In this document: positions 2,292 to 58,381 of the stretch, one piece after another
Layout of the letters: every line of letters starts with the position of its first letter
Numbering within the stretch: position 1 is the stretch's first letter
Assembly (NCBI GenBank): GCA_963830105.1
Contig: CAWHLH010000003.1
Coordinates: 771,931 to 835,930 of the forward strand
DNA length: 64,000 nt
Direction: 5' to 3'
DNA from: an uncultured Gammaproteobacteria bacterium
GTDB taxonomy: Bacteria; Pseudomonadota; Gammaproteobacteria; DATFLG01
Notes under the pieces: generated by a model
Databases searched by the model: none
What the model was told of the DNA's origin: nothing
What the model saw: the letters and a program-made list of their open reading frames with translations, nothing else
Made by a program: the position numbers and the translations under genes

Positions 2292-3260
2292 TCACGGCTT
2301 GGGCGCAGCCCGCCCGGCCGCGCGCGCGCCGCTGGGCAGGCAGCGCCCGACCGAGCCATCCGCACAAATGGTCCCGTCCACCCAGATGGCGTGGTCCAGG
2401 CGGGCACCGCGAAGCCGGACACCGGCCAGCTTGGCGCCCTGCAGAACGGCATAGGAAAGATCCGCTTTATCGAGACGGGCGCCGCGCAGATCGGTGTTGC
2501 GCAGACCGGCACCGGTGAGCCGTGCATCGCTGAGATCGGCGCCTCGCAGGTCGGCAATGCTGAGGGTGGCGTAGGCAAGATCCGCCCCGTGCAGATGCGC
2601 ACCGCGCAGGTCGGCGCCCGTGAGGTCCATGCTGTACATATGGGCTGCCAGCAGATTGGAGCCCGGCGCACGAAGACCGGGGCGGTGACAGTTGTTCCAG
2701 TCGACACCCGGCCCGGGTGCAGCCGAACACTGAACCTTGCCCGGGGGCGCAGACGGCGTATAGCGCGCGAACACTACGGTAAGGGCAAGCACCAGTGCGG
2801 CCAGTATCAGTACCACCCGCGGATCCGCTCGGACATCGCCGCCATGGCCCTCGGTCAATTGGCTCCGGACACGGCGATGGCGCACCATGGAGTCCGATTC
2901 CGGCGCGCGCCGGTCGCTGCGGCGGCGCCGTTCATGCACTTCCCCGTCGGGCCGGCTGCCGCGGCGTTCGACGCCACGGCGTTCGTCCTCGCGCATGCGT
3001 GCCAACAACAACCGTTGACGCCCTTCCTCGGAATCCACGTCCAACATTTCCGGCGGCAGCAGCTCGGGGTGATCGGCAACGGGCCGCCACAACACGGCAT
3101 CCTGGCTGATCTCGTCGGTGTCGCGGATACGGCCCAGCAGAATGTAGCGGCCGATCTGGCCGGCGGGATACGGTCCCCGCACCTCGCCCTCGCGGCGCGT
3201 ATACCACAAGACCTTTTCGATCGCTTCGCCTTTCATCTCGCCCCGTCCGTCCTCAGGCAT
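2292..3260 (-). CDS. Membrane protein with N-terminal GYF_2/DUF4339-like domain, one TM helix and C-terminal pentapeptide repeats
   Basis: VLWYTRREGEVRGPYPAGQIGRYILLGRIRDTDEISQDAVLWRPVADHPELLP resembles the GYF_2 domain. A hydrophobic stretch VVLILAALVLALTVVFA follows, then tandem A(D/N)L-x-x pentapeptides (ADLRGAHLHGADLAYATLSIADLRGADLSDARLTGAGLRNTDLRGARLDKADLSYAVLQGAKLAGVRLRGARL). Confidence 0.7.
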   Translation of the reverse strand: MPEDGRGEMKGEAIEKVLWYTRREGEVRGPYPAGQIGRYILLGRIRDTDEISQDAVLWRPVADHPELLPPEMLDVDSEEGRQRLLLARMREDERRGVERRGSRPDGEVHERRRRSDRRAPESDSMVRHRRVRSQLTEGHGGDVRADPRVVLILAALVLALTVVFARYTPSAPPGKVQCSAAPGPGVDWNNCHRPGLRAPGSNLLAAHMYSMDLTGADLRGAHLHGADLAYATLSIADLRGADLSDARLTGAGLRNTDLRGARLDKADLSYAVLQGAKLAGVRLRGARLDHAIWVDGTICADGSVGRCLPSGARAAGRAAPKP

Positions 3261-3323
3261 TTCACTGGGTAAGTCTTTGCGGCACTATAGACTTGTCAAC
3301 GCCGGCCCGGACTGCATATCGCG

Positions 3324-4664
3324 ATGAAGCCCACGGTTCCGCTCCCGCCACTGGTGTCCCTGACGCTGACCCGTCCGCTCGCGACCATCCAGTCCTGGCG
3401 CATCGGGCAGGTGCTGCGCGCGATCGCCCTGACCGCTGCCACGGACGGACATGCCCGACTGCGCATCGGCACCCAGACCGTGCAGGCCCAAACCACCACG
3501 CCCGTTCAGGCCGGCCAGCGGCTCGAACTGCAGGTGATCAAACTCGGACCGCAGCCGGTTCTGCGATTGCTGACGCCCCAGGGCTCAGATCCGGTCACCG
3601 CCGCCATTCGCCGCGTTCTGCCTCGCCAGGCACCGGCGGGTCCCCTACTGGCCAATCTGGCAAAGCTGACCCTCGCCGAGCGCCCGCCGCTGCCGGCCGA
3701 GGTGCTGCAGCGTGTGCAGGAACTGCTCGCCAACCTGCCGCGGGCCCGCGACACTGTGACCGCAGACCAGCTGCGCAGCGCAGTCCGTTCCAGCGGCCTT
3801 TTCCTGGAAGCCCGGCTTGTGCGCGACCCCCCCAAGCCGGGCGCGTTGGCCGTGGACCTGAAAGCCAATCTGCTGCGTCTGATGGCGGTCTTGCGCGATT
3901 GGCCCGGCATCAGATCGCGCCCCCAGCAGAGCCAGAGCCCATTGCCGCCCCGTGCGCCTGTCCCCCCACGCACCGCTGCGCCGGCCGAACCGCCGTCCCC
4001 CGGCCGGACTGCCCCACCGCCGGCCGGGGGCAAAGCCACCGGTGCCACGGCCGAACCGGCGCCTGCCGCAACGGCCCGCTCGGCAGCGACCCCGGCAGCA
4101 CCGCCACCCCTGCGCGGGGTCGATCCCAGGCCGCAGCCACCGGCCGTCGCGACCCTGGCGCAGTTGAACGATCCCGGCGATCCCGCTGCCACCCGGTCGA
4201 CCCTTCATCGCCAGGTCGAAGGGGCCGTGGCGCGTCTGCAGCTCAACCAACTGGCGTCCGTATCCCGTTCCGACTCTCAAGCCGCGGAGTGGCTCATGGA
4301 ACTGCCCATGCAGGGCGAAAACGGGCGATTCGACGTATGGAGCCTGCGTATCCACCGGGAAGACCCGGACCGGCAAGGCCGGGGGTCCCAACAGAGAGCA
4401 CCCAGATGGTCGGTCACCCTCGCCTTCGATCTGCCGACTCTGGGGCCGGTGCAGGCGCGGGTCAGCGTTGGTGGCGATACAGTGTCAACAGTGTTCTGGG
4501 CGGAGCGGCCATCGACCCATGCCGTGTTCGAACGCCACTTGCAGGATCTGCGCGATCGCTTGGAGCATGCCGGGCTGGCGGTGGACCGTGTCACCTGCCA
4601 GCAGGGTCTGCCGGCATCGGTCCGACCGGCCCCCGGGCAGGGGTTGTTGGATGAAAGCGTATGA
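3324..4664 (+). CDS. FliK-family (flagellar hook-length control-like) protein, second copy
   Basis: Pro/Ala-rich central region. The C-terminal segment RFDVWSLRIHREDPDRQGRGSQQRAPRWSVTLAFDLPTLGPVQARVSVGGDTVSTVFWAERPSTHAVFERHLQDLRDRLEHAGLAVDRVTCQQG matches the Flg_hook (FliK C-terminal) pattern L.P..LGpV...v.v......F.a......a....l..Lr..L...Gl.v..v. Confidence 0.6.
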   Translation: MKPTVPLPPLVSLTLTRPLATIQSWRIGQVLRAIALTAATDGHARLRIGTQTVQAQTTTPVQAGQRLELQVIKLGPQPVLRLLTPQGSDPVTAAIRRVLPRQAPAGPLLANLAKLTLAERPPLPAEVLQRVQELLANLPRARDTVTADQLRSAVRSSGLFLEARLVRDPPKPGALAVDLKANLLRLMAVLRDWPGIRSRPQQSQSPLPPRAPVPPRTAAPAEPPSPGRTAPPPAGGKATGATAEPAPAATARSAATPAAPPPLRGVDPRPQPPAVATLAQLNDPGDPAATRSTLHRQVEGAVARLQLNQLASVSRSDSQAAEWLMELPMQGENGRFDVWSLRIHREDPDRQGRGSQQRAPRWSVTLAFDLPTLGPVQARVSVGGDTVSTVFWAERPSTHAVFERHLQDLRDRLEHAGLAVDRVTCQQGLPASVRPAPGQGLLDESV

Positions 4665-4945
4665 GCAAGAAACGCGGCCCTAATAAGCCCCCGGTCGCCG
4701 TTGCGCTGCACTATGACGGGAAGAACGCGCCCACTGTCACGGCCAAGGGCAAAGGCGAGGTTGCCGAACGTATCGCGGAACTGGCGCGTGAACACGATGT
4801 TCCCCTCCACGAAGACCCCCAGTTGGCCGCCCTGCTTGCGCGTGTGGAACTGGGCGACGAAATTCCGGAAGCGCTCTACCGGACAGTCGCCGAAGTGATC
4901 GCCTTCGCGTACCTGCTGAGCGGCAAATACCCGCCGCCAGGCTGA
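4661..4945 (+). CDS. Free-standing FlhB/YscU C-terminal-domain protein (COG2257-like, no TM export-gate domain)
   Basis: The 94-aa product MSKKRGPNKPPVAVALHYDGKNAPTVTAKGKGEVAERIAELAREHDVPLHEDPQLAALLARVELGDEIPEALYRTVAEVIAFAYLL aligns by eye to the cytoplasmic C-terminal domain of FlhB (ALxYD...P.V.AKG.G..A..I...A.e..VPi.ed..LAr.L) but with NAPTV in place of the NPTH autocleavage motif. Start overlaps the upstream FliK-like stop (ATGA). Confidence 0.7.
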   Translation: MSKKRGPNKPPVAVALHYDGKNAPTVTAKGKGEVAERIAELAREHDVPLHEDPQLAALLARVELGDEIPEALYRTVAEVIAFAYLLSGKYPPPG

Positions 4946-4952
4946 CCCGCCG

Positions 4953-5384
4953 TCAACTGGCGCGCGCCACCCCGTGCAGCATGACGATGAGATCGGCCTC
5001 GCCGCGGGTCAATCCGCAGCTCGCAATCAGTTCGTCCACACCGGCTCCGCCCTGTACCAGGCGGATGGCCTGTCCGTAGTGGCGGTCCGCCCCTGCACGC
5101 AGCTCGAGCTGGTCATGGCGCTCGGTAAGACGACGCACCAGGTCTTCGATCCGCACCAGCCGTTCGCCAACGCCGTTAGCCGCGCTGCACAGCGCAGCGA
5201 CGTCTTTTTCCAGCCGCTGCACATCGTCCAGACGCCGGCGCTCGCGGACCCGCTGGCGCCGCAGCGCCAGCCATAGCAGCAGCTGCAAGGCGAACAATAC
5301 GGCGCCTGCAACCACCAGCGCAGCGTCATGGAAACTCGTAAGAGCGGTCAGGTCAGGCATATTCATCGATATGAGGCTCGCCAT
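4953..5384 (-). CDS. DUF2802-family protein (flagellar-locus associated, N-terminal TM helix)
   Basis: N-terminal hydrophobic helix AALVVAGAVLFALQLLLWLAL then a coiled-coil-like charged region. Sits at the end of the che cluster after cheW, as DUF2802 genes do in Pseudomonas-type loci. Start may be at an internal Met. Confidence 0.6.
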   Translation of the reverse strand: MASLISMNMPDLTALTSFHDAALVVAGAVLFALQLLLWLALRRQRVRERRRLDDVQRLEKDVAALCSAANGVGERLVRIEDLVRRLTERHDQLELRAGADRHYGQAIRLVQGGAGVDELIASCGLTRGEADLIVMLHGVARAS

Positions 5385-18908: not shown

Positions 18909-20072
18909 CTATTGCCCGGCCGGCTTGTGCGGGCCACCCCGTCCCTTCTCGTACTCGTCCGGAACCGGCAGGTCCGAGGGAGGCGTCGGCACTGCGCCGC
19001 CATGCTCCTGAACCGCTTTGAGCTGATAGACGTAGGCAAGAACCTGGGCCACCGCGAGATACAGTCCCGCGGGGATTTCCTGATTGAGCTCGGTGCTGTG
19101 GTACAGCGCCCGCGCCAGCGGCGGCGCGGACATGATGACCACGTCGTTGGCGGCGGCCACCTTCCGGATCTGCGCCGCGATGAGATCGGCGCCTTTGGCG
19201 ACCAGCAGCGGCGCACCCATGCGGCCCGCGTCGTAGCGCAAAGCTACCGCATAGTGCGTCGGGTTGGTCACGACCACATCCGCCTTGGGCACCTCGGACA
19301 TCATTCGTGCCTGCGCGAATTCGCGCTGCTTTGCCCGAATGCGCTGCTTGACCTCGGGCTTGCCCTCTGTCTCCTTGTACTCATCCTTGATTTCCTGCTT
19401 GGTCATCTTCATCTGGCGCGCATGATCCCAGAGCTGAAATGGCACATCAGCCGCCGCGATCAGGATCAGCGGCAGACTCACTCCCAGAAATCCCCAACCC
19501 AGCAGATGGGCTGCATGCGCGATCGCCGCTTTTGGCGTCTCGGCACCCAGTCCCAGGAATTGATCGGACAGGTGCCACAGCAGTCCTATGGCGACCGCCG
19601 TCAGAAACAGGAACTTGACCAGTGCCTTTACGAGTTCCACCACACCCCGCACCGACACCAGCCGCTTGATTCCCTTCACCGGGTTGAGTTTGTCCAGATC
19701 GAACGCCAGCGCTTCGGCGCTGAACGTCCAGCCGCCCAGTGCCACGGAAGCCGCGATTGCCGCCACCGCGGTGACCAGCAGGAGCGGCGCCATCAGTGCC
19801 AGCGCATTCATCAGCGTGTGCTTCAGCAGCAGCACCGGAGCGGTCTGGTCGAAGATCTCGCTGCGATCCAGAGTCAGACCGGAGCGCATCAGGTCCATAA
19901 GGCGCTCTGCCATTGCCGGTCCTGTGACCAGCAGCATACCCGCCGAAACCAGCGTGACTGCCGCCGAATTGAGTTCCTTCGAACGGGCAATCTGGCCCTT
20001 CTTACGCGCCTCCTCAAGGCGCTTGCCGGTAGCCTGTTCACTTCGTTCCTGCCCGTCTTCGTTCTCCGCCAT
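18909..20072 (-). CDS. flhB: Flagellar export switch protein FlhB
   Basis: MAENEDGQERSEQATGKRLEEARKKGQIARSKELNSAAVTL plus four TM helices. The NPTH autocleavage site is present (…VVTNPTHYAVALRYD…). Confidence 0.95.
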   Translation of the reverse strand: MAENEDGQERSEQATGKRLEEARKKGQIARSKELNSAAVTLVSAGMLLVTGPAMAERLMDLMRSGLTLDRSEIFDQTAPVLLLKHTLMNALALMAPLLLVTAVAAIAASVALGGWTFSAEALAFDLDKLNPVKGIKRLVSVRGVVELVKALVKFLFLTAVAIGLLWHLSDQFLGLGAETPKAAIAHAAHLLGWGFLGVSLPLILIAAADVPFQLWDHARQMKMTKQEIKDEYKETEGKPEVKQRIRAKQREFAQARMMSEVPKADVVVTNPTHYAVALRYDAGRMGAPLLVAKGADLIAAQIRKVAAANDVVIMSAPPLARALYHSTELNQEIPAGLYLAVAQVLAYVYQLKAVQEHGGAVPTPPSDLPVPDEYEKGRGGPHKPAGQ

Positions 20073-24624: not shown

Positions 24625-26889
24625 TCAGGCGGGCGTGACCCAGGGGCCCTGGTTGAGCCAGGAGGTGAATCCGGGCGGGGGCAGCGGACGGCTGACGTGG
24701 AATCCCTGGACTTCGTCGCAGCCAAGGACCGCCAGCTGCGCCCAGGCCTCGCCATCCTCCACGCCTTCTGCCACCACCTTGAATCCGAGATTGTGGCCCA
24801 AGTCGATGATGGAACGGACGATGACAGCGTCGTTTTCATTGTGAGCCATATCCAACAGGAATGACTTGTCGATTTTCAGGGTATGGATCGGCAACCGCTT
24901 GAGGTAGGACAAAGAGGAGTAGCCGGTACCGAAGTCGTCGATGGCGATACCCACGCCCATGTCGCTGAGACGGGAAAGTATGGCGGCGCCGTACTCGAGG
25001 TCCGCCATCAGGGTTTCTTCGGTGATTTCGATCTCCAGACACTGGCCGTCCACACCTGCTTCTTTCAGGGCCCATTGGATCTTGTCCACCAAATGCGGAC
25101 TCTGAAAGAAGCGCGCCGACACGTTCACGGCGATCGGCACCTGCAGTCCGGCCGCCCTCAGGGTCTTGCACTGGCGCAGCGCCGTGACCAGCACCCAATC
25201 GGTGATGGAGGTCATCAGCCCGATCTGTTCCGCGATGTGAAGAAATCGCTTGGGAGCCACCAGGCCTTCCTGGGGATGCTTCCAGCGCAGCAGCGCTTCC
25301 GCCCCGCAGATCTTCATGGTACGGATGTCAATTTTCGGCTGATAATGGAGCTCGAATTCATTGCGCTCCAGCGCATGACGCAGCTGGCCGGAAAACTGCA
25401 GCTGCTCCGCGGCGGGCATGTCGGTACCCGGCTCATAGAACAGATAGGGCGCCTCGCTGCGCTTAGCGCCGTACATGGCCGTGTCGGCGTGGCTTAGCAG
25501 ACTCTCGGCGTCCTCGCCGTGGTCCGGGTAGACGGCGATGCCGATGGCGCCGGCCAGAAACAGTTCCTTGCCGTCGTGCCAGAACGGCGCCTTGAAACAG
25601 CCCAGGATCTTGCCCGCCACATGCTCCGCTGCGGTGCTCGCGGCACGCACTGCGGGCAACAGCACCGCGAACTCGTCTCCGCCCAACCGGGCCAGGGTGT
25701 CCGAATCACGCAGCACCGTGCGCAGGCGGCCGGCCACCTGGCGCAACAGCAGATCGCCCGCCGCATGGCCCAGGGTATCGTTGATGACCTTAAAATGATC
25801 CAGGTCCAGCAGCATCAGCACCACCTGACTGCCAGGGGCACGCCGGGCAGCCGCCAGCGCCACGTTCAGACGGTCGTACCACAGCGTCCGGTTGGCCAAC
25901 TCGGTCAGGCCGTCAGTGGTAGCCATGTGCTCCAGCCGTGCGTAGGTTTCCCGGGCTTCGGTGACGTCCTGCATCAACCCGTCAACACGCACCACCCGGC
26001 GCCCGCTGCCTCGCGAGGGATAGAATTCCATCCGAAACCAACGGGGCTCCGATCCCTTGAGCTCGATCCGGCAATCCACAACGCACTGGCGCCCTTGAAC
26101 GGCCTGTCCCCAAGCGTCGAGCACGCGGCGCTGATCGTCGGGGTGAACGTGGTCCATGCACGGAACAGGGGACTGCACACCGGACGGGCAGATGCGCTCC
26201 GTGGCCGGGCTGACATACAACAGCCGGTTACCGGGCACGGCCACCGACCAGAGTACCTGTGGAATGTTGGCAAGCAGGTCGGTTACCTGCAGCTGACTGG
26301 CGGCGATCTCGCTGCGCTGCTCGTCCAGACGGGCCAGCGCGTCGCCCCACTGGGACTGCAGCATGATGCCCATATCCCGGAAAACCAGCTTCGCCACTAC
26401 CGCGGCGAGAGGCTGCCGGTCGTCCGATTCGATGGTGGCAGAATCCGTGATGAGTTTGTGGAGATGGTCCAGGTAGAGGCGATAGGCACCCAGGACCCAC
26501 ACCGATTCGATCGCCCGCTGGCGATGCAGCGTGCCGATATGCGCTATGCGGGCGGCATCTCCGTCGCTGACGCCACCAGAGAGGATCCCCAACAGATGCT
26601 CGAGCTGGCTGCGGACAAGATCGCCTATGTCGCCGCCGGAGCGCTCGTAATCGTAGAGTCGCTCGGCCGCACCGGGGTTGTCGAACAGGTAATTATAATA
26701 GAGCTCAGCGAAACCGGCGGCGGCTTGCGCAAGGCTGTCCTGGTAGCGGGCGAGCAGCTTCAGATCGTCGTCGCCGATCTGAAGAACGTAGTTGAACTCC
26801 TTGCTCTTTACCCGCGACTCGACCAGCTGCTGCTGCGGCTCCGCACCACCACCCTGCCCTCTGCAACTCTGTTTGCGTTTTCCAGGCAT
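24625..26889 (-). CDS. Globin-coupled-sensor-like / PAS / GGDEF / EAL c-di-GMP turnover protein
   Basis: N-terminal segment DDDLKLLARYQDSLAQAAAGFAELYYNYLFDNPGAAERLYDYE...RIAHIGTLHRQRAIESVW resembles the sensor-globin domain of DosC/BpeGReg-type proteins. A PAS-like region follows. GGDEF has an intact GGDEF motif (LARLGGDEFAVLL) and EAL an intact EALLRW motif. Confidence 0.8.
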   Translation of the reverse strand: MPGKRKQSCRGQGGGAEPQQQLVESRVKSKEFNYVLQIGDDDLKLLARYQDSLAQAAAGFAELYYNYLFDNPGAAERLYDYERSGGDIGDLVRSQLEHLLGILSGGVSDGDAARIAHIGTLHRQRAIESVWVLGAYRLYLDHLHKLITDSATIESDDRQPLAAVVAKLVFRDMGIMLQSQWGDALARLDEQRSEIAASQLQVTDLLANIPQVLWSVAVPGNRLLYVSPATERICPSGVQSPVPCMDHVHPDDQRRVLDAWGQAVQGRQCVVDCRIELKGSEPRWFRMEFYPSRGSGRRVVRVDGLMQDVTEARETYARLEHMATTDGLTELANRTLWYDRLNVALAAARRAPGSQVVLMLLDLDHFKVINDTLGHAAGDLLLRQVAGRLRTVLRDSDTLARLGGDEFAVLLPAVRAASTAAEHVAGKILGCFKAPFWHDGKELFLAGAIGIAVYPDHGEDAESLLSHADTAMYGAKRSEAPYLFYEPGTDMPAAEQLQFSGQLRHALERNEFELHYQPKIDIRTMKICGAEALLRWKHPQEGLVAPKRFLHIAEQIGLMTSITDWVLVTALRQCKTLRAAGLQVPIAVNVSARFFQSPHLVDKIQWALKEAGVDGQCLEIEITEETLMADLEYGAAILSRLSDMGVGIAIDDFGTGYSSLSYLKRLPIHTLKIDKSFLLDMAHNENDAVIVRSIIDLGHNLGFKVVAEGVEDGEAWAQLAVLGCDEVQGFHVSRPLPPPGFTSWLNQGPWVTPA

Positions 26890-27033: not shown

Positions 27034-28407
27034 TTACGCGAAGTAGTCAATGGCACCAAGGGCGACACGCGCCGCCGAGCGAAGCTTCTCGCTCACCGGC
27101 TCGTCAACCACCAGAGTCGACTCGCTCCCGGTCGCGCCGCCGCCACCGCCACCGCCGTGGCCATGATGGCCAAAGCCCGCTCCTCCTTGCTGGCCGTGCC
27201 CCCCGAAGGAATGCTGAGAGACATTGACGTTGGCCAGGTTCAGTCCGCTGCCGCCCAGCATTTCCCGAAGCCGGGGAATCGCCGCTTCCAGGTGCTCCCT
27301 GGTGAGGGCGTGCTGGGCACTGAAGGCGACGCTCGCCTGGTCGTTGTGCACGCTGATGCGCACGTCGATAGGACCCAGATGGGCAGGGGTGACCCGCAGT
27401 TCGGCGCCCTGAAGATGCTGTCCGATCATCCACTTGACCCGTTCACCCAGTGCCTGATCCCAGCCCGGCTGCTGCATGGGCAACTGGATATTCGCAGTCG
27501 GCAGTGCAGGCGTGCTCTGGCTCGGGGGCACGGACGGCTGCACCGGCGGAGCAATGGTGGGATTACCCCCCTGGCTCAGGGCCGCGGTCGCGTCAGGGCC
27601 GTGGGCCGGGCCGAGCGCATGGGGGGGGAGCCCATTGGCTGCCGAATGGGAGATCGCCTGCTGGACGGCCGCGAGCAGTTGGGGCGGCAGCGCAGGCTGC
27701 TTGGCCGAGGCATCCGCGCCGCTTCCGGCGGTGGGTGCCACCGCGGCATGCACCGCCTGAGCAACGGTGAGTCGGTGATCCCCGGCCGGTTGCCCGGCGG
27801 ACTGCAGCAGCTTGACAAGGGCGGCGGGCAATTGCGGCTGAGCTCCGCCTTTGGCGTCCCCTTGCCGGGCACTACCAGGGGTGGCGGCACCGCTCCCGCC
27901 ATCTTTCCCGGACGCCGCCAAGCCCAGTTCCCGAGCCAGCAACGCCAGCTCTTGGCTGGTCGACGAATCCTGGATCGAAGACTGGCTCGACAACTGGCCC
28001 AACGACTGGGCCGGCAGATGGGCCGAAGGTTGGCTCGCGCCCTGAACATGCGGCGACGCTTGCTGTCCACCGGCCTGAGCGGCAAGCAGACTCGCAAGCA
28101 GCGCGGCCAGCACCTGGTCCGGTGGCAAATCCTTGCCGCCGGACGCGGAATCCGATGACCGCCCGTGTTCCCCCCGCAGCTTGGCTTGAAGCTCGTGCAC
28201 CAACTGGGCGATGGCCTGCGGAGAGCCCTTGGACAGGGGGCCGTTGAGCAACTGGGCGAACGCGCTGCCGCCCTGCCCATCGACCTGTTCGGCATTGCCA
28301 CCGGCAGCTGCGCCGCTACTCTTGTTGACGCTGCCGGAAGCGGTACCTGCGGTCCCGCCAGTGGCGGATGAGGCGATCTGTACAGAGGGTAGCGGCTGGT
28401 CCGCCAT
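27034..28407 (-). CDS. fliK: Flagellar hook-length control protein FliK
   Basis: 457 aa, Ala/Pro/Gln-rich. C-terminal Flg_hook domain ELRVTPAHLGPIDVRISVHNDQASVAFSAQHALTREHLEAAIPRLREMLGGSGLNLANVNV. Sits directly after fliJ. Confidence 0.85.
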   Translation of the reverse strand: MADQPLPSVQIASSATGGTAGTASGSVNKSSGAAAGGNAEQVDGQGGSAFAQLLNGPLSKGSPQAIAQLVHELQAKLRGEHGRSSDSASGGKDLPPDQVLAALLASLLAAQAGGQQASPHVQGASQPSAHLPAQSLGQLSSQSSIQDSSTSQELALLARELGLAASGKDGGSGAATPGSARQGDAKGGAQPQLPAALVKLLQSAGQPAGDHRLTVAQAVHAAVAPTAGSGADASAKQPALPPQLLAAVQQAISHSAANGLPPHALGPAHGPDATAALSQGGNPTIAPPVQPSVPPSQSTPALPTANIQLPMQQPGWDQALGERVKWMIGQHLQGAELRVTPAHLGPIDVRISVHNDQASVAFSAQHALTREHLEAAIPRLREMLGGSGLNLANVNVSQHSFGGHGQQGGAGFGHHGHGGGGGGGATGSESTLVVDEPVSEKLRSAARVALGAIDYFA

Positions 28408-28468: not shown

Positions 28469-28918
28469 TCAGTCGTCTTCGGACGGCTTGCTTCGATTCC
28501 GCAAGGCGCGTTCGTCCATATCGTGCTGTTCACGCCGTTCCTCCGCCTTGCGTTCCACGCTTTGATAGCGTTCGGTCACCTTGTCCAGGGCCTGGGCGCG
28601 GGTGCGGGTCTCCAGCCAGCGCTGGCGGCTGCGCTCGCAATCGCCGCGCAACTTTTCCACCGCAGCCGACTGCTGACTGACCGCAACACCGAGCCGGTCC
28701 AGGAATACGCGGTATTCGTGCACCCGGCGCGCGTCCAGACCGGCGCCGCCGGCGGCACTGAAATCCCGAGAATACTGCTCGCGATAGCCTATCAGTTCCG
28801 TCAGTTTCGCCTCGTTTTCCGCAAGCGCACGCTGGGCGTCACCCAATGCGCGGGCCGCCTGGCGCTCACGGTCTTCGGCGACCCTGACCACAGGTTGCAT
28901 GCGTTTGGAACGGGTCAC
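28469..28918 (-). CDS. fliJ: Flagellar export chaperone FliJ
   Basis: 149-aa coiled-coil protein rich in R/E/Q (…LDKVTERYQSVERKAEERREQHDMDE…) placed between fliI and fliK. Confidence 0.8.
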   Translation of the reverse strand: MTRSKRMQPVVRVAEDRERQAARALGDAQRALAENEAKLTELIGYREQYSRDFSAAGGAGLDARRVHEYRVFLDRLGVAVSQQSAAVEKLRGDCERSRQRWLETRTRAQALDKVTERYQSVERKAEERREQHDMDERALRNRSKPSEDD

Positions 28919-46562: not shown

Positions 46563-49500
46563 TTACCTGTCCGACGCCGGCAGTAGCGCCTCCATCCACT
46601 CATCAAGGTGGTCATCGAGCATCCATTGGCTTCTCACCCATTCGCGCAGCTGCACTCCTTCCTGCTCCGCCGCGTCAAGATCGTGGACCCGGTCCCGTAT
46701 CGCATTGATCCATGCGCTGGCCGTATTGGCCACCCGCGTCACCGGAGCGTTGCGGTACGGTTCGATGTCCGTGCATATCACCGGGCAGCCCAGGACCCCG
46801 TATTCCAGCAGACGTAGATTGCTCTTGGCCTCGTTGAAGCTGTTGTACTCGAGCGGCGCCACGGCGATATCCAGACCCAGAGCCGCCAGGGCTGTTGGGT
46901 AGTCGTCGTACGGCACCGGCCCGTGGAACTCCGCCACATACGGCCGGATCGGCTCGGGGCACATGCCCATGAACACCCAGTCCACCTCCCGGGCGGTTTC
47001 TCGCACGACCTGATCCAGCAGTTGCAGGTCGCCTTCGTGCTGAAGCGCCCCCACCCATCCGATGCGCGGCCTGTCGCCGACTCGGCGGCGGACTTCCAGA
47101 TCGGCCCAGCGGTGATCCAGCCTGTTGGGCACGATGCGAATGTCACCGATGTAACTGCGGAAGTGATGGCCGAGCGCTTCAGTCGTGACAATCAGCCGAT
47201 CGCACAGAGACAGGCATTCTCGAAGGCGTTTCTTTATATCTTTATAGATGGTGGATCGTAGCGGATTCTTGGCGGGCAGCGCAGTCATCAGATCGTCCTG
47301 CCCGAAGGTGACAAAGGCGCCACCGCCGCGCCGGTACTGCCGCAGCGCCTCGATGTGCGCGTCGTGGACCGTGTTGTAGAGCAGCAGGCTGTCAACGTCC
47401 AGCCTGGCCAATTCGACCGGGCCCGGCACGCGCACCTGGTCGGGGTAAGTTGGAACCTCTGCCGTGTTGGCAATCCCCCGGCGCCCAAGGACATGAAGGG
47501 GTTGGGAGCCACGATACTCCCAGGACCCGGCGGAGCCGAACGCCATCCCCAGTATGCGCGGCAGGTCGTGGTTGTCCCGCGCAGACCACGCGGGCAGATC
47601 GTCCTCCAACGCCACGTCCGGTCGATGCAGGGACAAAGCCGGATGAAACGCCGGATCGTTGGCGAGCCGCGGCAACCAGCGCGCCCGCAGCCCCATCACT
47701 TCCTTCTCCGCTCCCTGCCCCGTGGTATCGGGCTGTCCGGCAAATATCGTCACGTGCGGCGTCCATATCACGCGTCGCCCGCGCTCCTGGGCCCGCAGAC
47801 ATATTTCCGTATCGCCGTGGTGGCGATTCGGCGCCAGCATGTCGATACCTAAATCGGCGTACAGCGCCTTCTCGATCAACAGGCCATCCCTGGAAACTGC
47901 TGACATCTCCTGGGCAACCTGAGCGCGCCCGAAATAGCCAGGTGCCGAATGGGTGAGCCCCGGCTGCAGCGGGGCCGCTATGCCGTCGGTACCCAGGCCA
48001 AGAATCTTACCGATGCCCCGAATGGACTGATCCGCACCGACGACGCGAGCACCGACAATGCCGGCCTCGGAGGGTAGCGCCTGCGCCACCATCCGCTCGA
48101 CCCAATTCGGTTGCACCACGCGCATGCCGTCGCACACGAACAACAGATACTCCGCCTCCACCGCGCCAATATCCTGCGGCGTCTCGAGCAGACCGATCCG
48201 GGCGTCCCGGTCGGCCAATACCCTTAAACCCTGCGCCACACTGTGATCCCGGTGCGCCAGACTAAGCCAGACGCGCATATCCGGATACGTCGTCGTCTCC
48301 AGAACCGATTGCACGCTGTTGGTGACTTCGTCAGCGCTGCCGCGGCCATGGACGACGACTGCGACTTGCGGCAAGCGCATCGGCTCGTATTCAACGCGCC
48401 AAGTCTCGCGCGCAATCCCCGGTTGTACAGCCGCCTTTGTGCCGCAGCGACTCAGATGCTCGGTCACTATGGCCATCCCGAGGACCGTCGCCTTCTCGCT
48501 GGACGTGCGGTTCGCGTCGAGGCGATGGTAGAGAATGTGTGGAATATGCCCGACCGCGCCGTCACCGCACCGTTCGATGATGCGCAACACGGCATCGTAG
48601 GCCTCCATTCCGTCGAGGCAAACGTAACCTCCCAGTGCGAGCAGTACCTCACGCGCCACCAGACAAAACCGCCCCACATAGGCCTGCCCGCGCAGCCATT
48701 CGAGATTGACGTCCGGCTTCAGGCGTGGCTCGTACTCACGTCCGTCGGCTCCAATCCGATCCTCGTCGGTGTATACAAACCGCCATTTCTCGTGCCTCTG
48801 GATATAGTCAGCGCATTGCAGAAGCAGCGAAACGTCGAACCGATCCCCCGGCCCCACCAGGCCGACCCAATCCGCCTCGACGTCACCGATGACCCGATTC
48901 ACTGCCTCGAGCCATCCGCCCCCGTCGACCTCCACCCACCGTAGCGCGGGATGCTGCGAGAACAGGGGATCGGGCGCTGGGCAATCCGCCACGACCGAGA
49001 GCTTCCAGCGCCCGTAGTGCTGCGCCGACACGGATTCCAGGGTGTCCGGCAAGCCGGACATATCCTTTTCCGACACCACCATCACCAGGTGCATCCCCGG
49101 CTGCGATGCCTTCCCCTCCACCGCCTGCCGCAGCTGATCGAGCTGCTCCGCCGTCGGTGCGCGCGCTGCGCGCCACCTTTCATACGCTTCGACCAACCGG
49201 TCCCTGACCTTTTCCGGCGACAACTTGTTGTCGGCCACATCGAGCAGCCCCGTCACCAACTGGCGCGACCCATCCCTGCCATGGAGCAGTTCGGAATAAA
49301 CAGCGTCATAGTCGCCGACGTTGTCCTCCATTGACTTGTGCACCAACCCCTCGAGCCCTGCGTGGACGCCCGTGAGCGAACTGCGGTCCTGCGCCAGTTC
49401 CAGGAGGCGCTTCGCCAATGCAGCCGGGTCCGAGGGCGGGACCAGAAAACCGGTAACCCCGTCGACCACCCGTTCGGGAATGGCCCCCACCGCCGCCGCG

Positions 49501-52469
49501 ACAACCGGCACACCCATGGCCTGGGCCTCGCTCACCGTCAGACAGAACGTTTCGTCCCACACCGACGGTATAATGACAACGTCCACGCGCCCAAGGAGCT
49601 TCGGCAGTTCTTCAGCCGAATAATTCCCGTGCAGCCTCAGGCCAAGCGATACCGCTCGTGCCTTGATGGTATCCTGGACCCCGCCGAACACTTCGACCTG
49701 CACCGCTTCGCCGCGCATCCGCTCCACAGCATCGAGTACCGTGTATGCCCCCTTGCGCTCGGTGAGGTTGCCGAGAAATCCGACCCGAAAGGTGCTGGTG
49801 CGCGGCGGGCGCGCTGACCTACCCTTTACTACGACGCCGTGGGGAACGACGCGGATCTTCGCACCCACCGTTTCCCCCAGCGCACGACAGAACTGGTCGC
49901 GCACGAAGGCCGACGGGGCAATAAGAATATCCGCCGCCTCCAGCACCGACTGGACCAGCGCCTGACGCTCGCCCATATACTGATTCAGCGCCGCGGGCGC
50001 GTGGATGCCGCTCAATTCACGCTTGGCGGACAGGCAACGCATGCACTGCGGGTCGGCGCCGTTGCTCTGCTCCCGTCCACAGCGCCTGTATTCCGGAAGC
50101 ATCAAGTTGTACTCGGGGCACAGCAAGAAATAGTCGTGGAGCGACACTACAACTTTCTTGCCGAGCGCCTTGGCCAGTACCGGCAACAGCAGACTGTCCC
50201 AGTGCGCCAAATGCTGAAAATGAACGATGTCGTAGTCACCCCCGGCTACAAAGCGGGTGAAGTTCCCTTCCACAATCGCATTGTCAAGATCGCCTGCAAT
50301 GCCGACAAACCGCTCCCTGGCCACCACGTTGCGCTCTCTGAGTTCAACGACCCGCAGGTGGGAATCACGCTGCTCCGAATGAAATTCGACATAGTCGCTT
50401 CTTTCGGCTTTTGTATTCCGGCCAGGGAACATGACCGTCGAGCGGTAGCGCTTTTCGAGACCGTCTATCAAACGCCGGGTATGCAACTCCGTGCCGCCCG
50501 GCACATCGAAGCTGTGAATCACATGCAGCACGTGCGGCCGGACTTCGCCCGGTTTGCGCTCCAGCGCCGTCTGCAGGCGCTCCTGCACCTCGCGAAGCGG
50601 ATTATGATGGCAGAAGACCTGCACCGCGACGTCGTACTTCGGCCAGCGCTTCGCGAGCACTTGCGCGTTGCGCAGTCGCCGCTTGCCAATCTGTTTTATG
50701 GAACTGAAGGAGGCCTCGCCATAATGGTGCACGTAGGCGTCGTCACAGCAGACGGTTTCGATTCCTACGTGCCAGGCGCGCATGCAGAAATCGCTCTCCT
50801 CGCCGTACCCAAGACCGAAGACCGAATCGAACACCCCGACCCGGTCGAGGGTTGCGCGGGTGATGAGCATGCAGAATCCCACGGCTGTCGGCAAACGCGG
50901 ATATGAACGCGGCGCATTCTCCGCCACGATCGCCGCAAACCTGTCCACCGACATGTCAGGCGGCAGCCGGTTGGCGGCGCTCATGACCGGAACCGAAAGA
51001 ATCGTGGCATTGTTCGACAAGGGCGAAACTATGCCGATTGCCGGATCGCTGAGGCGACAACGGTCCAGACGTGCCAGCCACCCGGCCGTCACCTCGGTAT
51101 CTGAGTTCAAGATCACCACATCATGGCGCGACAGCATGAAGCCCCGATTGACGTTTCCGATGAACCCGAGATTGCTGTCCGAGGTAACCACGCGCACACG
51201 CGGATCGGAAGATTCAAACCCCCTGAGCAATGGCAGGACCCGCGGATCGGAACTCGCGTCATCGAGGAGAATTACACAGTGCTTGGGATCGGTGTACCGC
51301 AACACGCTTTCCACGCAGCGCTTGACGTGATCGTAGGCGTTGTAGATCGGTATCAGGATATCGTATGCGGTCTCACTCTCCGCCAGCGCTTCGGCCGGCG
51401 GCATCCTGCGGACCAGCGTGAGCGCCCGATCGATGGCACTCCTGATACGCACGGCCGCACGGTCACGCTCTGGTCCCTGATTCGAGCTCTCGAGCACCGA
51501 CTGGTTCGCTGAGCGAGACTTGGACTCGATCGCATCAAGCCGACGCCGCAGTTGCTCCGGATCGCGGTCGTAGTTCGTGCTATCGCCATAGCGCGGCGTA
51601 GCCAGCAGCGCAACGGCCAGCTCATCAAGCCTTTCGACGGGCGAGCACTGTGCGATCGCAGCTTGCAAATTCACTACTCGCTCGCGGGGAACGAACAGCA
51701 GCGAGCTTTCCTCGGCCACGCCGAACATGTTATCCGGATTGCCGCGGAAATTTTCTATGTTGAATGCCGGGAAACGACAAAAGTATGCAGCGTAGTCGTA
51801 TTCTCTGAAGAACTTGACGATATCCCAACCGCGCTCAAGATCGTTGCACTCCAGATAGACCACCGATCGGGAGCGCGCCAGGTTTTGCTGCGCGCCGCGA
51901 AGGACGTCAAGTTCCATCGCCTCAACATCGATCTTGATCAGATCGACGTTTTCCTCGCACACACTGTCGAGCGTGATGACGGGTACCGTCAACATCTCCA
52001 TGTCCGGCTGGGCAGGGTTCTGGCCAGCGGCCAGAGACAATGCCCCGACATTCTGTCGTTGTGTGGGATCGATGGCAGGGATCGATACCGTCCCCGCAAC
52101 GCACGAGACCGCCGCATCGAACGCCCGGACGTTGCGGATTGCGTTCTGGACCAGATTCCGTGTTAAGACCTCGAAGACCTGCGGCTGGGCCTCGACCGCA
52201 TAGACGCGTCCGCTATCGCCGGCAATGCTCGAAAGGGCGAGGGTGTGAGTGCCTACGTTCGCACCGGCATCAATCACGACGCCGCCCGGCGGTACGAATT
52301 GCGCGAGGAACTCTATCTCGGCCTGCGCCCACTCGCCGTAGGCCTGCAAGGCATCGCCGATGGGACCGTCGAAGGGGAAAAATGACATCGAACCGTACCG
52401 GCACGGCAGGGTCTGCACGATATCATCCATCGGCTGCAACGCGGTTGTCGTATCAACGCTACGATTCAT
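46563..52469 (-). CDS. Giant (1968-aa) multidomain flagellin-glycan enzyme: FkbM methyltransferase - GT2 - GT4 - GT2 - GT2 - C-terminal GT-B-like domain
   Basis: Residues 60-250: VVIDAGANVGTHTLALS…VYAVEAQPQVFEVLTRNL…IKIDVEAMELDVLRG is an FkbM-family SAM methyltransferase. Then GT-A segments with DxD-like motifs (LLDDASSDP, NSDTEV; YTDED). A GT4-like region (…ETFCLTVSEAQAMGVPVVAAAVGAIPERVVDGVTGFLVPPSD). The C-terminal ~350 aa are paralogous to the C-terminus of the next gene. Start ATG at 52469 lies 11 nt after the stop of the upstream gene. Confidence 0.8.
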   Translation of the reverse strand: MNRSVDTTTALQPMDDIVQTLPCRYGSMSFFPFDGPIGDALQAYGEWAQAEIEFLAQFVPPGGVVIDAGANVGTHTLALSSIAGDSGRVYAVEAQPQVFEVLTRNLVQNAIRNVRAFDAAVSCVAGTVSIPAIDPTQRQNVGALSLAAGQNPAQPDMEMLTVPVITLDSVCEENVDLIKIDVEAMELDVLRGAQQNLARSRSVVYLECNDLERGWDIVKFFREYDYAAYFCRFPAFNIENFRGNPDNMFGVAEESSLLFVPRERVVNLQAAIAQCSPVERLDELAVALLATPRYGDSTNYDRDPEQLRRRLDAIESKSRSANQSVLESSNQGPERDRAAVRIRSAIDRALTLVRRMPPAEALAESETAYDILIPIYNAYDHVKRCVESVLRYTDPKHCVILLDDASSDPRVLPLLRGFESSDPRVRVVTSDSNLGFIGNVNRGFMLSRHDVVILNSDTEVTAGWLARLDRCRLSDPAIGIVSPLSNNATILSVPVMSAANRLPPDMSVDRFAAIVAENAPRSYPRLPTAVGFCMLITRATLDRVGVFDSVFGLGYGEESDFCMRAWHVGIETVCCDDAYVHHYGEASFSSIKQIGKRRLRNAQVLAKRWPKYDVAVQVFCHHNPLREVQERLQTALERKPGEVRPHVLHVIHSFDVPGGTELHTRRLIDGLEKRYRSTVMFPGRNTKAERSDYVEFHSEQRDSHLRVVELRERNVVARERFVGIAGDLDNAIVEGNFTRFVAGGDYDIVHFQHLAHWDSLLLPVLAKALGKKVVVSLHDYFLLCPEYNLMLPEYRRCGREQSNGADPQCMRCLSAKRELSGIHAPAALNQYMGERQALVQSVLEAADILIAPSAFVRDQFCRALGETVGAKIRVVPHGVVVKGRSARPPRTSTFRVGFLGNLTERKGAYTVLDAVERMRGEAVQVEVFGGVQDTIKARAVSLGLRLHGNYSAEELPKLLGRVDVVIIPSVWDETFCLTVSEAQAMGVPVVAAAVGAIPERVVDGVTGFLVPPSDPAALAKRLLELAQDRSSLTGVHAGLEGLVHKSMEDNVGDYDAVYSELLHGRDGSRQLVTGLLDVADNKLSPEKVRDRLVEAYERWRAARAPTAEQLDQLRQAVEGKASQPGMHLVMVVSEKDMSGLPDTLESVSAQHYGRWKLSVVADCPAPDPLFSQHPALRWVEVDGGGWLEAVNRVIGDVEADWVGLVGPGDRFDVSLLLQCADYIQRHEKWRFVYTDEDRIGADGREYEPRLKPDVNLEWLRGQAYVGRFCLVAREVLLALGGYVCLDGMEAYDAVLRIIERCGDGAVGHIPHILYHRLDANRTSSEKATVLGMAIVTEHLSRCGTKAAVQPGIARETWRVEYEPMRLPQVAVVVHGRGSADEVTNSVQSVLETTTYPDMRVWLSLAHRDHSVAQGLRVLADRDARIGLLETPQDIGAVEAEYLLFVCDGMRVVQPNWVERMVAQALPSEAGIVGARVVGADQSIRGIGKILGLGTDGIAAPLQPGLTHSAPGYFGRAQVAQEMSAVSRDGLLIEKALYADLGIDMLAPNRHHGDTEICLRAQERGRRVIWTPHVTIFAGQPDTTGQGAEKEVMGLRARWLPRLANDPAFHPALSLHRPDVALEDDLPAWSARDNHDLPRILGMAFGSAGSWEYRGSQPLHVLGRRGIANTAEVPTYPDQVRVPGPVELARLDVDSLLLYNTVHDAHIEALRQYRRGGGAFVTFGQDDLMTALPAKNPLRSTIYKDIKKRLRECLSLCDRLIVTTEALGHHFRSYIGDIRIVPNRLDHRWADLEVRRRVGDRPRIGWVGALQHEGDLQLLDQVVRETAREVDWVFMGMCPEPIRPYVAEFHGPVPYDDYPTALAALGLDIAVAPLEYNSFNEAKSNLRLLEYGVLGCPVICTDIEPYRNAPVTRVANTASAWINAIRDRVHDLDAAEQEGVQLREWVRSQWMLDDHLDEWMEALLPASDR

Positions 52470-52480
52470 TTCACCCTACT

Positions 52481-55400
52481 CTAGCTGTAATGCCGGGCGA
52501 TCGAGACCGGCCGGCACTCCGCAACCGGGCGGGTCTTGTCACCGGGCGTCAGGGACGCCATCCAGTCGTCCAAATGGTCCTCGAGCATCCATCCGTTCAG
52601 CACCCAATCCTTCAGCCTGTCCCCTTCCTGCGCGGCGGCGCCCAGGTCATGCGCGCGTTCGCGAATCGCGTCGATCCACGCGGCAGGATCATTGCGTACA
52701 CGCTTGACTGGGCCGCCACGGTACGGTTCGATATCCGTACACACCACCGGCCAGCCCAGAACTCCATATTCCAGGATACGCAGATTGCTCTTTGCGATGT
52801 TGAATGGATGGTCTTCCAGGGGTGCCACGGCCAGATCCAGATTGAGTGCAGCGAGCCTGACCGGGTACTGGGCGAATTCCCCGAACTCGTGGACCTCCCG
52901 CACGAACGGACGCAATGCATCCGGACACATTCCGAAGAACACCCAATCCACCTCTTTGGCGGTGGCCTGGACGACCGGGATGAGCAGTTCGAGGTCGCCC
53001 AGGTGCTGCTGACCGCCGGCCCACCCCACTCGGGGACGAGGCCCCTGACGGCGCAGCGAACGTAGCGTGCCCCAGCGGGAGCGTGGCAGATAGTTGGGAA
53101 GGACACGTATGTCGTCGATGATGTCCCGATACACCTCCGCGATGGGGTCAGTGGTAACGATCAACCGATCGCAGCAGCTGAGCGCTCGGCGGGTGCGCGC
53201 CTTGATATCACGGAAAAGCAACTTCCGACGGGAATTCTTTTCCGGTACCTGCGTTTTCAGGTCTTCCATGTCGAAGACCCGGAATGCCCTGTTGAAACGC
53301 TTGTAGCTTTCAAGGGCGTCCAGGTGCGCGTCATCCAAGGTCCCCTGCAGCAGCAGGGTGTCCGGATCGAGACGTTCCAGTTCGACTATCGAGGGTACCC
53401 GCGGCCAGCCCTCCTGGGGTGCGGCAAAACCGCAGCGGGCACGCGCAGCGGCGGCCAACGCGTTCAAAGGCGCCAGAACGCGGTACTCCCCGCAGCCATA
53501 GGTGTCGACGGGGATACCGAGGATACGGGGGCGGTCGTTAAATGACGGGTCCCAGCTCGCGGTCGACTCGGTGCGCGTGCGGAAGTCCCTGTGGGACAGG
53601 CTCAGGTTTCGGTTGTAATACGGATCGTGCGCCAGATCTCCGAGCCAGCGTTGGAGCATCCGGTTTCCCTCTTCCCCGCAGCCCGGTCGCTCGCCTCCCG
53701 CGCACTGCGGCGGTTGCCAGCCCAGCAGCGCGTGCGGTGTCCACACAACTCGCAGGCCCCGGTTGCGCAACCGAAGGCAGAGATCGGCGGGGTACCAAAC
53801 GTTGGGAAGCATCTGTTCGTCGAAGGGGCCGATGGCTTCGAAAGCAGCGCGGCGGACCATCAAACACGCGCCAGGCACGGCGGACACGCCTTGATCGGTC
53901 AGGGCGCGCCCAAAATAGCCCGGATCCCATGCCGACAGACCTGCGAATGCATCTGCGGCTACGCCGCCTATCCCCAGCAGCAGGGCACTGTGTGCCACCG
54001 TTTTGTCCGGCCCCACAACCCGTGGCGCCACCACGCCGACATCCGGTCGCTGGGCATGGTTGAGCAGTTCTTCCAGCCAGGTTTCCTGCACAAACACCGA
54101 GTGCCTGTCGATGAAAACCAGATATTCACCTGTCGCCACCTCCACTGCCGCATTGTAGGCGGCGGCGCGATTGCCCGGGGTCGGCGCCGTCACCACCCTC
54201 ACGAGTCCCTGGTGGCGCAACAAGTCCAGGTAGTCGTAGGTGTCTTCATCCTCACTACCCTCGTCCACGATCAGCAATTCCATGTGTGCATACCGGGTAG
54301 CGTCGCGCAGGCTGTCGATGAAGATTTCCAGGACATGGAGGTCGTCACGGACAGCAACAATGACCGAGACCATGGGATGAGCGGCATGCTGATAGCAGAC
54401 CCGCAGGGTCTGCGTCGCCAGCCCCTCGGCGACCTCCGCTGTCTGTCCGCAGCGCTCGAGATGGGCTGCCAACGCCGCACGGCGCCACGGCATAAGCCGG
54501 AGGTCGCCGCGCAGGGCTTCGGTGACGGGTCCCCGATGATACAAGACATCGGCGACATGCCCGATGCACTCGGTCCCGCAACGCTCCAGCACCTTCAATG
54601 CCAGTTCGTAATTCCGAATTCCCGGCTCCGAGCTGTAGCCCCCGGCTGCCAGCAACACCTCCCGACGCACGAGACAGAAACTGCCGACCCCGTCCTGGGA
54701 ACGCAGCAGGTCAGGGTCGGCATCTGTCTTGAACCACGGGTCTGCGCGCCTGCCGGCGGCGTCCATCCGGTCCTCGTCACTGTAGATCAAGGCCCAGTCC
54801 GGAGACTGTTGGAGATGATCGATACAGGCAAACAGGGCATTCGGTGCCAGCCGGTCGCCGGGGCGGATCAGCCCGACCCAGTCGGCGTCGGTATCTGCAA
54901 TCGCCCGGTTGATGGCGGACTCCGGATCGTCCCCACACTGGTACCACTCCAGGTTGGGCTGTTCGCCGAACAGGGCGTCCGGGCAAGGCTCCTCAGCGAC
55001 AACGGTCAACCCCCACCCGGGATAGAGCTGGTCTGAGAGCGACTGCAGGGTAGGGGCCAGAAGTTGCGTTTCGCCGGTCCGCAACGGTGCGATGAGATGG
55101 ACGGAGGGACGTACACGCCAGTTCAGCACCATACGTTCGGCCAGAAGTTCCCCGTCAGACTCGCGCAGGGCGTAGATGCGGGTCCAGTCGGCATAGTCAA
55201 GGGGCCGGTCTGGCCCCTGTGCATCACCATCGAAGGGCATCGGCGGCGGTGCCGGCGAGAGGGCCGCAAACACATCCTCCAGCGCATCGAGTTCCAAAGC
55301 CGCCTGATCGAGAAATGCCGCGTCCGGTGCCACATCACCGGCCGCGACGCTTGCGAGATGGCCGTACACCCCATCCACGAGGGATCGAAGCCCTCGCGGC

Positions 55401-57529: not shown

Positions 57530-58381
57530 CGGCCCAACCGGTCTCCAGCGCGATCTGACCGTTTGGCAGCAGGGCGGCGACGGAAATTCGACACCCAATG
57601 GAACAATCAAGCAAAGCAACAACGGGCCGAATCAGTTGGTTAGCGCTGGTTGTACGAAAATGGCCGATCCGGTTGCAGCTCGCTGGCTAGCTGCTGCAAG
57701 TGCTATGCCACTTGGGTTGGGATTCGGCCCGCCACTGATGGGCCGCGGCGCTCTGACTGACCTTCCCCGGCCCCTTACCCCCCGCAACTGCGCCAGCCGT
57801 TCTGACGGCGACCGCACCGGCGGCGCCCACCATTTGCATCGGCGAAGTACGGGGTGCAGGGATGCACAAGGGACATGTCCGTTTCGCTGCCAATCACCCC
57901 GAACGAGGGGTCGCTGCGCGGGCTTTGCAGGGTGCGCCCTGGGGATAGCGAGCACTGCGCCGCCCACAGCGTTGCGATTTTTCACCTGCCACTTGATGGG
58001 CACCAACCATGAACGCCGGCTTGCACGCGGACCCCGCTTGCCGGACACCGGCGACAAGTTGCCGTCTCAGGGTCCGAGGCGCCGCCACCGGGGCGGCCCG
58101 GATACCCCCCGGACCGCGCTTTCCACGGGGCGGTCGCGCAATCGGACTCGCGAAGAACGCGAGCGGGCTCGCATCTTTCAACACACATGGCTTGTGTCGG
58201 GGAGGAAGTGCCGGCACTCGGACGGGTGCGTTTCGGACGCTGACGCAGCCGGACCTTGCTGGTCCGCAACAGGCAGTTCCACCGGGGTAACCGGTAATGG
58301 CCTTGTCCGCCGCCCTTACAGGCTCAACCGATTTCGCGTCTGGTCGACGCAGTCACGCGAAAAGAATCTCGTAATCAACAC

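Follow-up and report, generated by a model that had tools for sequence, protein, structure and literature searches.

The fliK2–flhX pair of an uncultured gammaproteobacterium: a free-standing FlhB_CC homologue coupled to a second FliK-family protein

The region analysed here is a stretch of 64,000 nucleotides from an uncultured Gammaproteobacteria bacterium (GenBank assembly GCA_963830105.1, contig CAWHLH010000003.1, positions 771,931 to 835,930), referred to below as the window. Two overlapping open reading frames (ORFs) on its plus strand encode a second FliK-family protein of 446 amino acids (aa) and a free-standing 94-aa homologue of FlhB_CC, the part of the cytoplasmic domain of the flagellar export protein FlhB that begins at the autocleavage boundary. 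The two genes are almost certainly the fliK2–flhX (flhB2) bicistronic operon, an accessory flagellar pair of polar-flagellate Gammaproteobacteria. This pair has already been named and published, and there is nothing new in the pair itself. The present analysis adds its strict pairing, the conservation of the early-substrate pocket in FlhX, and the folded N-terminal module of FliK2, which belongs to no Pfam family.

Relatives and pairing of fliK2 and flhX

The fliK2 gene occupies positions 3324–4664 (+) and encodes an orthologue of the PP_4328-type FliK2 of Pseudomonas putida; flhX lies at positions 4661–4945 (+). The stop codon of the former and the start codon of the latter share the bases ATGA (4661–4664, +), and this overlap, read directly in the sequence, bears out the translational coupling proposed in an earlier sequence-only reading of the window. 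Profile searches matched both products, the 446-aa protein to Flg_hook (E-value 4.9e-19), which confirms its FliK C-terminal domain, and the 94-aa protein to the C-terminal region of Bac_export_2 (4.4e-23), as that reading had anticipated.

In P. putida KT2440, PP_4328 is fliK2 and PP_4329 is the flhX orthologue, also written flhB2 (Leal-Morales et al., bioRxiv 10.1101/2021.08.29.457346). According to the same work, the two genes are transcribed continuously, have a FliA-dependent promoter, belong to the late genes of class IV, and lie at the boundary of the flagellar cluster beside flrD (DUF2802); the operon was called uncharacterised. The sequence-only reading had described a COG2257-type pair without an established function, which is correct as to the function; the pair, however, already has its names. 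The preprint traces the name FlhX back to Pallen et al. 2005, and attributes to Wand et al. 2006 and Smith et al. 2009 the result that HP1575 (FlhX) of Helicobacter pylori partly replaces FlhB function. H. pylori FlhX is reported to take the place of a deleted FlhB_CC in trans, and the P. putida FlhX is 34% identical to HP1575. The H. pylori protein is also a small free-standing FlhB_CC homologue, but its host is epsilonproteobacterial. A flhX–fliK pair has been mentioned for Nitratiruptor, and FlhX is a standard query in flagellar phylogenomics. Literature matches for P. aeruginosa PA1466–PA1468 were discarded as spurious (they correspond to PA14_66580 and PA14_67750), and the 'flhB2' of PMC3708937 and of a Vibrio paper is a construct name or part of a second flagellar system, i.e., another thing.

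In the P. citronellolis locus, the order is ccm genes, fliK2 (526 aa), flhX (104 aa, with a 4-nt overlap), a small ORF, the DUF2802 gene, cheW, parP-type and parC-type genes, and motDC. The layout of the pair, its 4-nt overlap and its position next to DUF2802–cheW–parP–parC–motDC are the same in Pseudomonas and in the window, but in Pseudomonas FliK2 is longer, ccm genes precede the pair, and a small ORF of the PP_4330 type separates flhX from the DUF2802 gene. The FlhX of the window is 58% identical to that of P. citronellolis, and the two FliK2 proteins share 33% identity over 353 aa (E-value 3e-26). To judge from these comparisons, the window gene is orthologous and syntenic with the Pseudomonas flhX (PP_4329 type). 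The small ORF of P. citronellolis (165 aa; locus L087, 6962–7459, −) has no Pfam match and is absent from the window; for its positional match in P. putida, PP_4330, the literature found no flagellar link.

FlhX is widely represented. There are 1166 homologous clusters at E ≤ 1e-5, with lengths of 91–125 aa among the 120 matches listed, and, when one genome was scanned for each species, at least 528 species proved to have a relative. In the FlhX alignment, 29 of the 94 columns are invariant at 65–92% identity. An identical 94-aa protein with the same gene order was found on the contig of a gammaproteobacterial metagenome-assembled genome (GCA_049581805.1).

A synteny survey, one of the checks named in the sequence-only reading, retained 80 loci, 72 of them with enough upstream DNA. 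A FliK2-family ORF stands immediately 5′ of flhX on the same strand in all 72 evaluable loci, and the junction reads ATGA in 63 of them, GTGA in four, CTGA in four and ATAA in one. The surroundings of the pair vary. In a Thiodiazotropha genome it adjoins fliJ–fliI–fliH–fliG–fliF, and in another genome it adjoins non-flagellar genes. Linkage to the che cluster was considered as a defining feature and rejected, since a convergent DUF2802 gene was found in only 18 of 71 related loci and cheW downstream in only 19 of 71. The fliK2–flhX pair is more stable than its own neighbourhood.

Architecture of FlhX and FliK2

FlhX matches the Pfam family Bac_export_2 (FlhB/YscU) over model positions 261–334 of 335 only. 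Pfam gave no match to positions 1–260, i.e., the N-terminal four-helix membrane domain of FlhB/SctU was not found in FlhX. The best NCBIfam model, TIGR00789 (flhB_rel), scores 93.2 bits, below its curated cut-off of 117.35; by this threshold, FlhX is a relative and not a member. The sequence-only reading had taken the protein for a copy of the FlhB switch domain without the membrane gate. Its derivation from FlhB and its free-standing nature are upheld, but only the CC half is present, and FlhB_CN (about 60 residues, including strand β1) is absent.

The canonical full-length flhB of the window (18909–20072, −) covers Bac_export_2 positions 1–335 with an E-value of 8.9e-129 and contains NPTH (VVVTNPTHYAVAL); around the NPTH region, its product reads VVVTNPTHYAVALRYDAGRMGAPLLVAKG. 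BLASTP aligned FlhX residues 13–86 to residues 274–350 of this FlhB (44% identity, E-value 4e-13). In the BLASTP comparison, the family alignment and the profile alignments to sequences of the Protein Data Bank (PDB), FlhB TNPTHYAVALRYD falls opposite FlhX GPNKPPVAVALHYD. In a 30-sequence alignment, N8-K9-P10-P11 of FlhX (4682–4693, +) is the positional equivalent of FlhB N269-P270-T271-H272; the NPTH autocleavage motif of FlhB/SctU is absent from FlhX, the equivalent positions being NKPP. These columns are variable across the family (N/E/P, K/P/R, P and D/E, respectively). The segment NAPTV (N22-A23-P24-T25-V26; 4724–4738, +), which the sequence-only reading had placed at the site of NPTH, aligns instead to FlhB G285-A286-P287-L288-L289; it stands opposite FlhB GAPLLV, within the conserved AP..VAKG motif, and holds two residues of the early-substrate pocket.

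When the family profile was compared with PDB sequences, the best matches were the B chains of 3b1s and 3b0z, which are post-autocleavage fragments, and the alignments began at chain residue 3–4. An AlphaFold2 model of FlhX, built from a shallow alignment, has a mean predicted local distance difference test (pLDDT) score of 61.9 and the order strand–strand–helix–strand–helix–strand–helix. A Foldseek search with this model returned 3b1s chain B and 3b0z chain B as the top PDB folds, with TM-scores of about 0.6–0.7, and then C-fragments of EscU, PscU, YscU and Spa40. These comparisons indicate that FlhX, rather than being a complete cytoplasmic domain of FlhB, is a separately encoded FlhB_CC that begins where FlhB is cleaved. 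Since FlhX begins at the NPTH cleavage boundary, there is nothing to cleave, and autocleavage is moot rather than mutationally lost. Thus, the prediction that the protein cannot autocleave was right, although for the wrong reason.

In Salmonella, early (rod/hook-type) substrates dock in a hydrophobic pocket of FlhB_CC formed by A286, P287, A341 and L344 (PMC13344023), and the FlhB of the window has the same numbering for these residues. Their equivalents in FlhX are A23, present in 24 of 29 sequences, and P24, A77 and I80, each present in 29 of 29. The strand A-x-A-L-x-Y-D is invariant in the FlhX family as well; in FlhB, it comes after NPTH and pairs with β1 of FlhB_CN. FlhX resembles FlhB_CC (FlhB_CCD; 3b0z chain B, 3b1s chain B) in its predicted fold, its boundaries and the four pocket residues. 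Unlike FlhB_CC, it has its own gene, lacks NPTH, FlhB_CN, the membrane domain and the C-terminal extension of about 30 residues, and possesses a conserved SGKxPPG end together with the family-specific invariant residues P48-L49, E78 and F82.

FliK2 contains a single Pfam domain, Flg_hook, at residues 354–429. Its closest homologue, annotated as FliK, is 63% identical. The AlphaFold2 model, based on 60 homologues, has a pLDDT of 83.4 and a predicted template modelling score of 0.75. It begins with a folded N-terminal module (3357–3896, +) consisting of a beta domain (residues 12–82) and a helical domain (residues 90–191), where the pLDDT of most blocks is around 90. A variable linker rich in Pro and Ala (residues 192–278; 3897–4157, +) follows; its pLDDT is about 50–56, it contains 28% Pro, and its columns in the family alignment have 39–49% gaps. 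A helix is predicted at residues 287–311. According to AlphaFold2, Pfam and Foldseek, the C-terminal type III secretion substrate specificity switch (T3S4) or Flg_hook domain extends from about residue 322 to residue 429 (4287–4610, +); the AlphaFold2 model itself places it at residues 322–427. The protein ends in the conserved tail LLDESV (4644–4661, +), where the ribosome-binding region of flhX is also located.

A Foldseek search against the PDB matched only the C-terminal domain of FliK2, to the PscP SS domain (5cuk) and to FliK_C (2rrl); the N-terminal module has no Pfam family and no fold match in the PDB. A search with the 195 N-terminal residues (3324–3908) among 1.84 billion representatives found 1279 clusters at E ≤ 1e-3, of which 470 reached E ≤ 1e-10. 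The module almost always forms the N-terminus of proteins of 350–550 aa, and Flg_hook was also present in 99 of 99 sampled carriers. Weak S1-domain matches were noted in three of the 99 members, hinting at an oligonucleotide/oligosaccharide-binding (OB)-like beta barrel. In nearly all of 60 FliK2 family members, the tail has the form (L/I)(L/V/M)D(E)x(A/V)-stop; it has low pLDDT and is predicted to be disordered. The last five residues of FliK are essential, and the conserved tail of FliK2 recalls them.

The canonical fliK is located where the sequence-only reading had put it, after fliJ (27034–28407, − and 28469–28918, −, respectively). Its product has a low-complexity N-terminal half and a Flg_hook domain; the first 300 residues are 68% G, S, Q, A, P and T, and F50-AQL-L54 conforms to FxxxPhi, the motif by which rod/hook-type substrates are recognised at the gate. 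The resemblance between FliK2 and this FliK is confined to the T3S4 core, where 55 residues align at 35% identity. FliK2 shares with canonical FliK and the YscP-type T3S4 rulers the C-terminal T3S4 domain and, behind it, a disordered tail whose terminal residues are conserved. It differs in that a folded module replaces the disordered ruler and no gate-recognition motif is conserved, and also in genomic position and transcriptional class. The FxxxPhi motif was not found in the first 70 residues of FliK2 of the window; only 11 of 99 family members have it, and not at a fixed position. Hydrophobic residues make up 32% of the 190 N-terminal residues of FliK2 versus 17% of the ruler half of canonical FliK. 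FliK2 lacks the build that characterises canonical FliK, a disordered N-terminal ruler with an export signal and FxxxPhi. Because of the folded N-terminal module and the lack of a conserved export motif, FliK2 appears to be built as a folded cytoplasmic protein, and a role as a ruler is disfavoured.

Genomic neighbourhood of the pair

The pair stands at the tail of the che/fli run on the opposite strand, convergent with a DUF2802 gene (4953–5384, −; Pfam DUF2802, 2.7e-21), in agreement with the sequence-only reading. The DUF2802 gene is the orthologue of FipA/FlrD, the membrane-anchored FlhF partner that sets the placement of the polar flagellum. Its stop codon is 7 nt from that of flhX, and therefore there is no room for separate terminators. 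Past the DUF2802 gene, the minus strand carries cheW, a CheW-like (ParP-type) gene, a ParA-like (ParC-type) gene, motD/motC, cheB, cheA, cheZ and cheY; the run continues with fliA, fleN, flhF, flhA, flhB and fliR and, further on, with fliM, fliL, the canonical fliK and fliJ. The window contains only one set of flagellar genes.

The divergent intergenic region 5′ of fliK2 (3261–3323) is 63 bp long. A 22-nt block in it, CTTTGCGGCACTATAGACTTGT (3275–3296), is kept in two relatives whose FliK2 proteins are 54–63% identical; it fits the sigma-28, sigma-54 and sigma-70 consensus sequences poorly. A scan of the upstream region for sigma-70 promoters and terminators gave nothing above shuffled sequences, and a sigma-54-like GGCAC...TTG noticed by eye was rejected because its spacing is wrong.

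The gene on the other side of this region (2292–3260, −) encodes a protein with a weak N-terminal GYF_2 match, a central hydrophobic segment and C-terminal pentapeptide repeats. Of 59 related loci, 46 have the same divergent pentapeptide gene directly 5′ of fliK2, and 39 have AMMECR1 no more than 2.5 kb away. The che cluster is linked less strongly than this. In the Pseudomonas/Stutzerimonas, Thioalkalivibrio and Methylococcales loci the linkage is absent; it could reflect either shared ancestry or a functional link.

Several other genes of the window can be noted. A 754-aa protoglobin–PAS–GGDEF–EAL protein, a globin-coupled cyclic di-GMP enzyme, is encoded within the flagellar cluster between fliL and fliK (24625–26889, −); in a Thiodiazotropha locus, an EAL–HDOD gene adjoins fliJ. 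Two giant ORFs (46563–52469, −, 1968 aa and 52481–57622, −, 1713 aa) contain several glycosyltransferase domains (GT2, GT4/GT1) together with methyltransferase domains (FkbM, Methyltransf_24) and are probably a flagellin or surface glycosylation island.

Possible function of the pair

In Salmonella, FlhB_CC holds the export gate in the early mode, and at hook completion FliK ejects FlhB_CC, which is then degraded. Early export fails without FlhB_CC, and the FlhA_C ring is a proposed target of the FliK_C–FlhB_C complex. We tentatively favour the possibility that a cytoplasmic FliK2–FlhX complex mimics the transient FliK_C–FlhB_CC switch complex and, once sigma-28 has been activated, acts on the export gate. 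This reading is preferred because the two genes are strictly coupled, FlhX has a conserved pocket and strand, FliK2 lacks the build of a ruler, and expression is late in P. putida, all taken together with the Salmonella and H. pylori results. Translational coupling would yield FliK2 and FlhX in 1:1 amounts, and the two proteins would presumably associate in the cytoplasm through the interface that FliK_C uses on FlhB_CC. The product would be a stable, non-secreted mimic of the switch complex, made once sigma-28 is active. Its target may be the FlhA_C ring, the vacated FlhB_CN docking site, or both, and by acting there it could set or hold the early or late export state, in whichever direction, independently of hook-length measurement.

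Several points weigh against this proposal. The binding of FliK2 to FlhX is one that we infer, and the FlhX model, with its pLDDT of 61.9, is only moderately confident. The H. pylori data concern FlhX alone and appear to fit a role as a spare part equally well. The late expression of the pair in this organism is extrapolated from P. putida, where the FliA promoter is documented; in the window, none is recognised, the best match in a sigma-28 scan 5′ of fliK2 having 8 of 13 positions. Among related loci, a match of at least 11 of 13 positions occurs in 11.6%, compared with 1.1% of controls, which is only a modest enrichment. The conservation of the FliK2 tail may also be dual, coming partly from the overlapping ribosome-binding site and start of flhX. 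Finally, the flhX single mutants of Wand's 2006 work are reported to have weak phenotypes.

A rather less likely explanation is that FlhX alone is active and serves as a spare part. It would dock on FlhB_CN of gates that lack FlhB_CC, whether by spontaneous loss or by FliK ejection, and restore early export, with FliK2 as its cytoplasmic remover or restrainer. The start of FlhX exactly at the CC boundary and its retained A-x-A-L-x-Y-D strand and early-substrate pocket are what such a part would need, early export is abolished in Salmonella upon FlhB_CC loss, and export in H. pylori is reported to be possible without FlhB_CC if FlhX (HP1575) is present. However, each new FlhB carries its own CC, the FliA-dependent late expression in P. 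putida would re-arm gates that are meant to stay late, and the large conserved N-terminal module of FliK2 is left unexplained.

A bolder and improbable variant combines the two proteins in a non-secreted second switch able to reverse or lock the export-specificity state. FlhX would refill the FlhB_CN site left empty by the FliK-driven ejection of FlhB_CC and reset the gate to early, and FliK2 would be an intracellular ejector or holder controlled via its N-terminal module.

Decoy and timer were among the roles suggested in the sequence-only reading. The conserved pocket residues of FlhX would suit a cytoplasmic decoy, in which FlhX, produced once the switch has taken place, would bind up residual rod/hook-type subunits or FliK via the gate-recognition motif and so sharpen the early-to-late transition. 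Docking of this motif on FlhB_C is essential for early export, and the class IV expression in P. putida agrees with such a role. Nevertheless, a decoy leaves the obligatory 1:1 coupling with FliK2 unaccounted for, and a protein of about 10 kDa would have to be abundant; we regard this role as quite improbable.

The sequence-only reading had also suggested a second ruler. In that case FliK2 would be exported and would measure a second structure or a second hook length, with FlhX as its alternative target. The T3S4 domain and the Pro-rich linker agree with this, but the 190 N-terminal residues of FliK2 are predicted to be folded and have nearly twice the hydrophobic content of the canonical ruler half (32% versus 17%), no FxxxPhi motif is conserved in the family, and the linker is only about 85 residues long and variable in length. 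With a single flagellar gene set in the window and late, class IV transcription in P. putida as further counterpoints, a second ruler is highly unlikely.

A decaying duplicate with no present function, for which one could cite the uncharacterised function and the reportedly weak phenotypes, is hardly credible and effectively refuted by conservation, given the 1166 FlhX clusters, the presence of FlhX in at least 528 species, the 29 invariant columns of 94, the 1279 representative clusters of the FliK2 N-terminal module, and the intact ORFs with their conserved junction.

For the window itself, the analysis provides the annotation of fliK2 and flhX, the corrected mapping of NPTH, and the view of FliK2 as a probably folded cytoplasmic protein rather than a ruler. 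More broadly, several hundred species at the least carry the pair, which published work still describes as uncharacterised. With a soluble FlhB_CC encoded in the genome beside a T3S4 partner of its own, it offers a natural probe of the switch in which FliK drives the ejection of FlhB_CC, and the ejection model of 2026 makes the open function of fliK2–flhX more topical. If the reversible second switch were real, the 'irreversible' switch of the flagellum would be open to regulation in polar flagellates.

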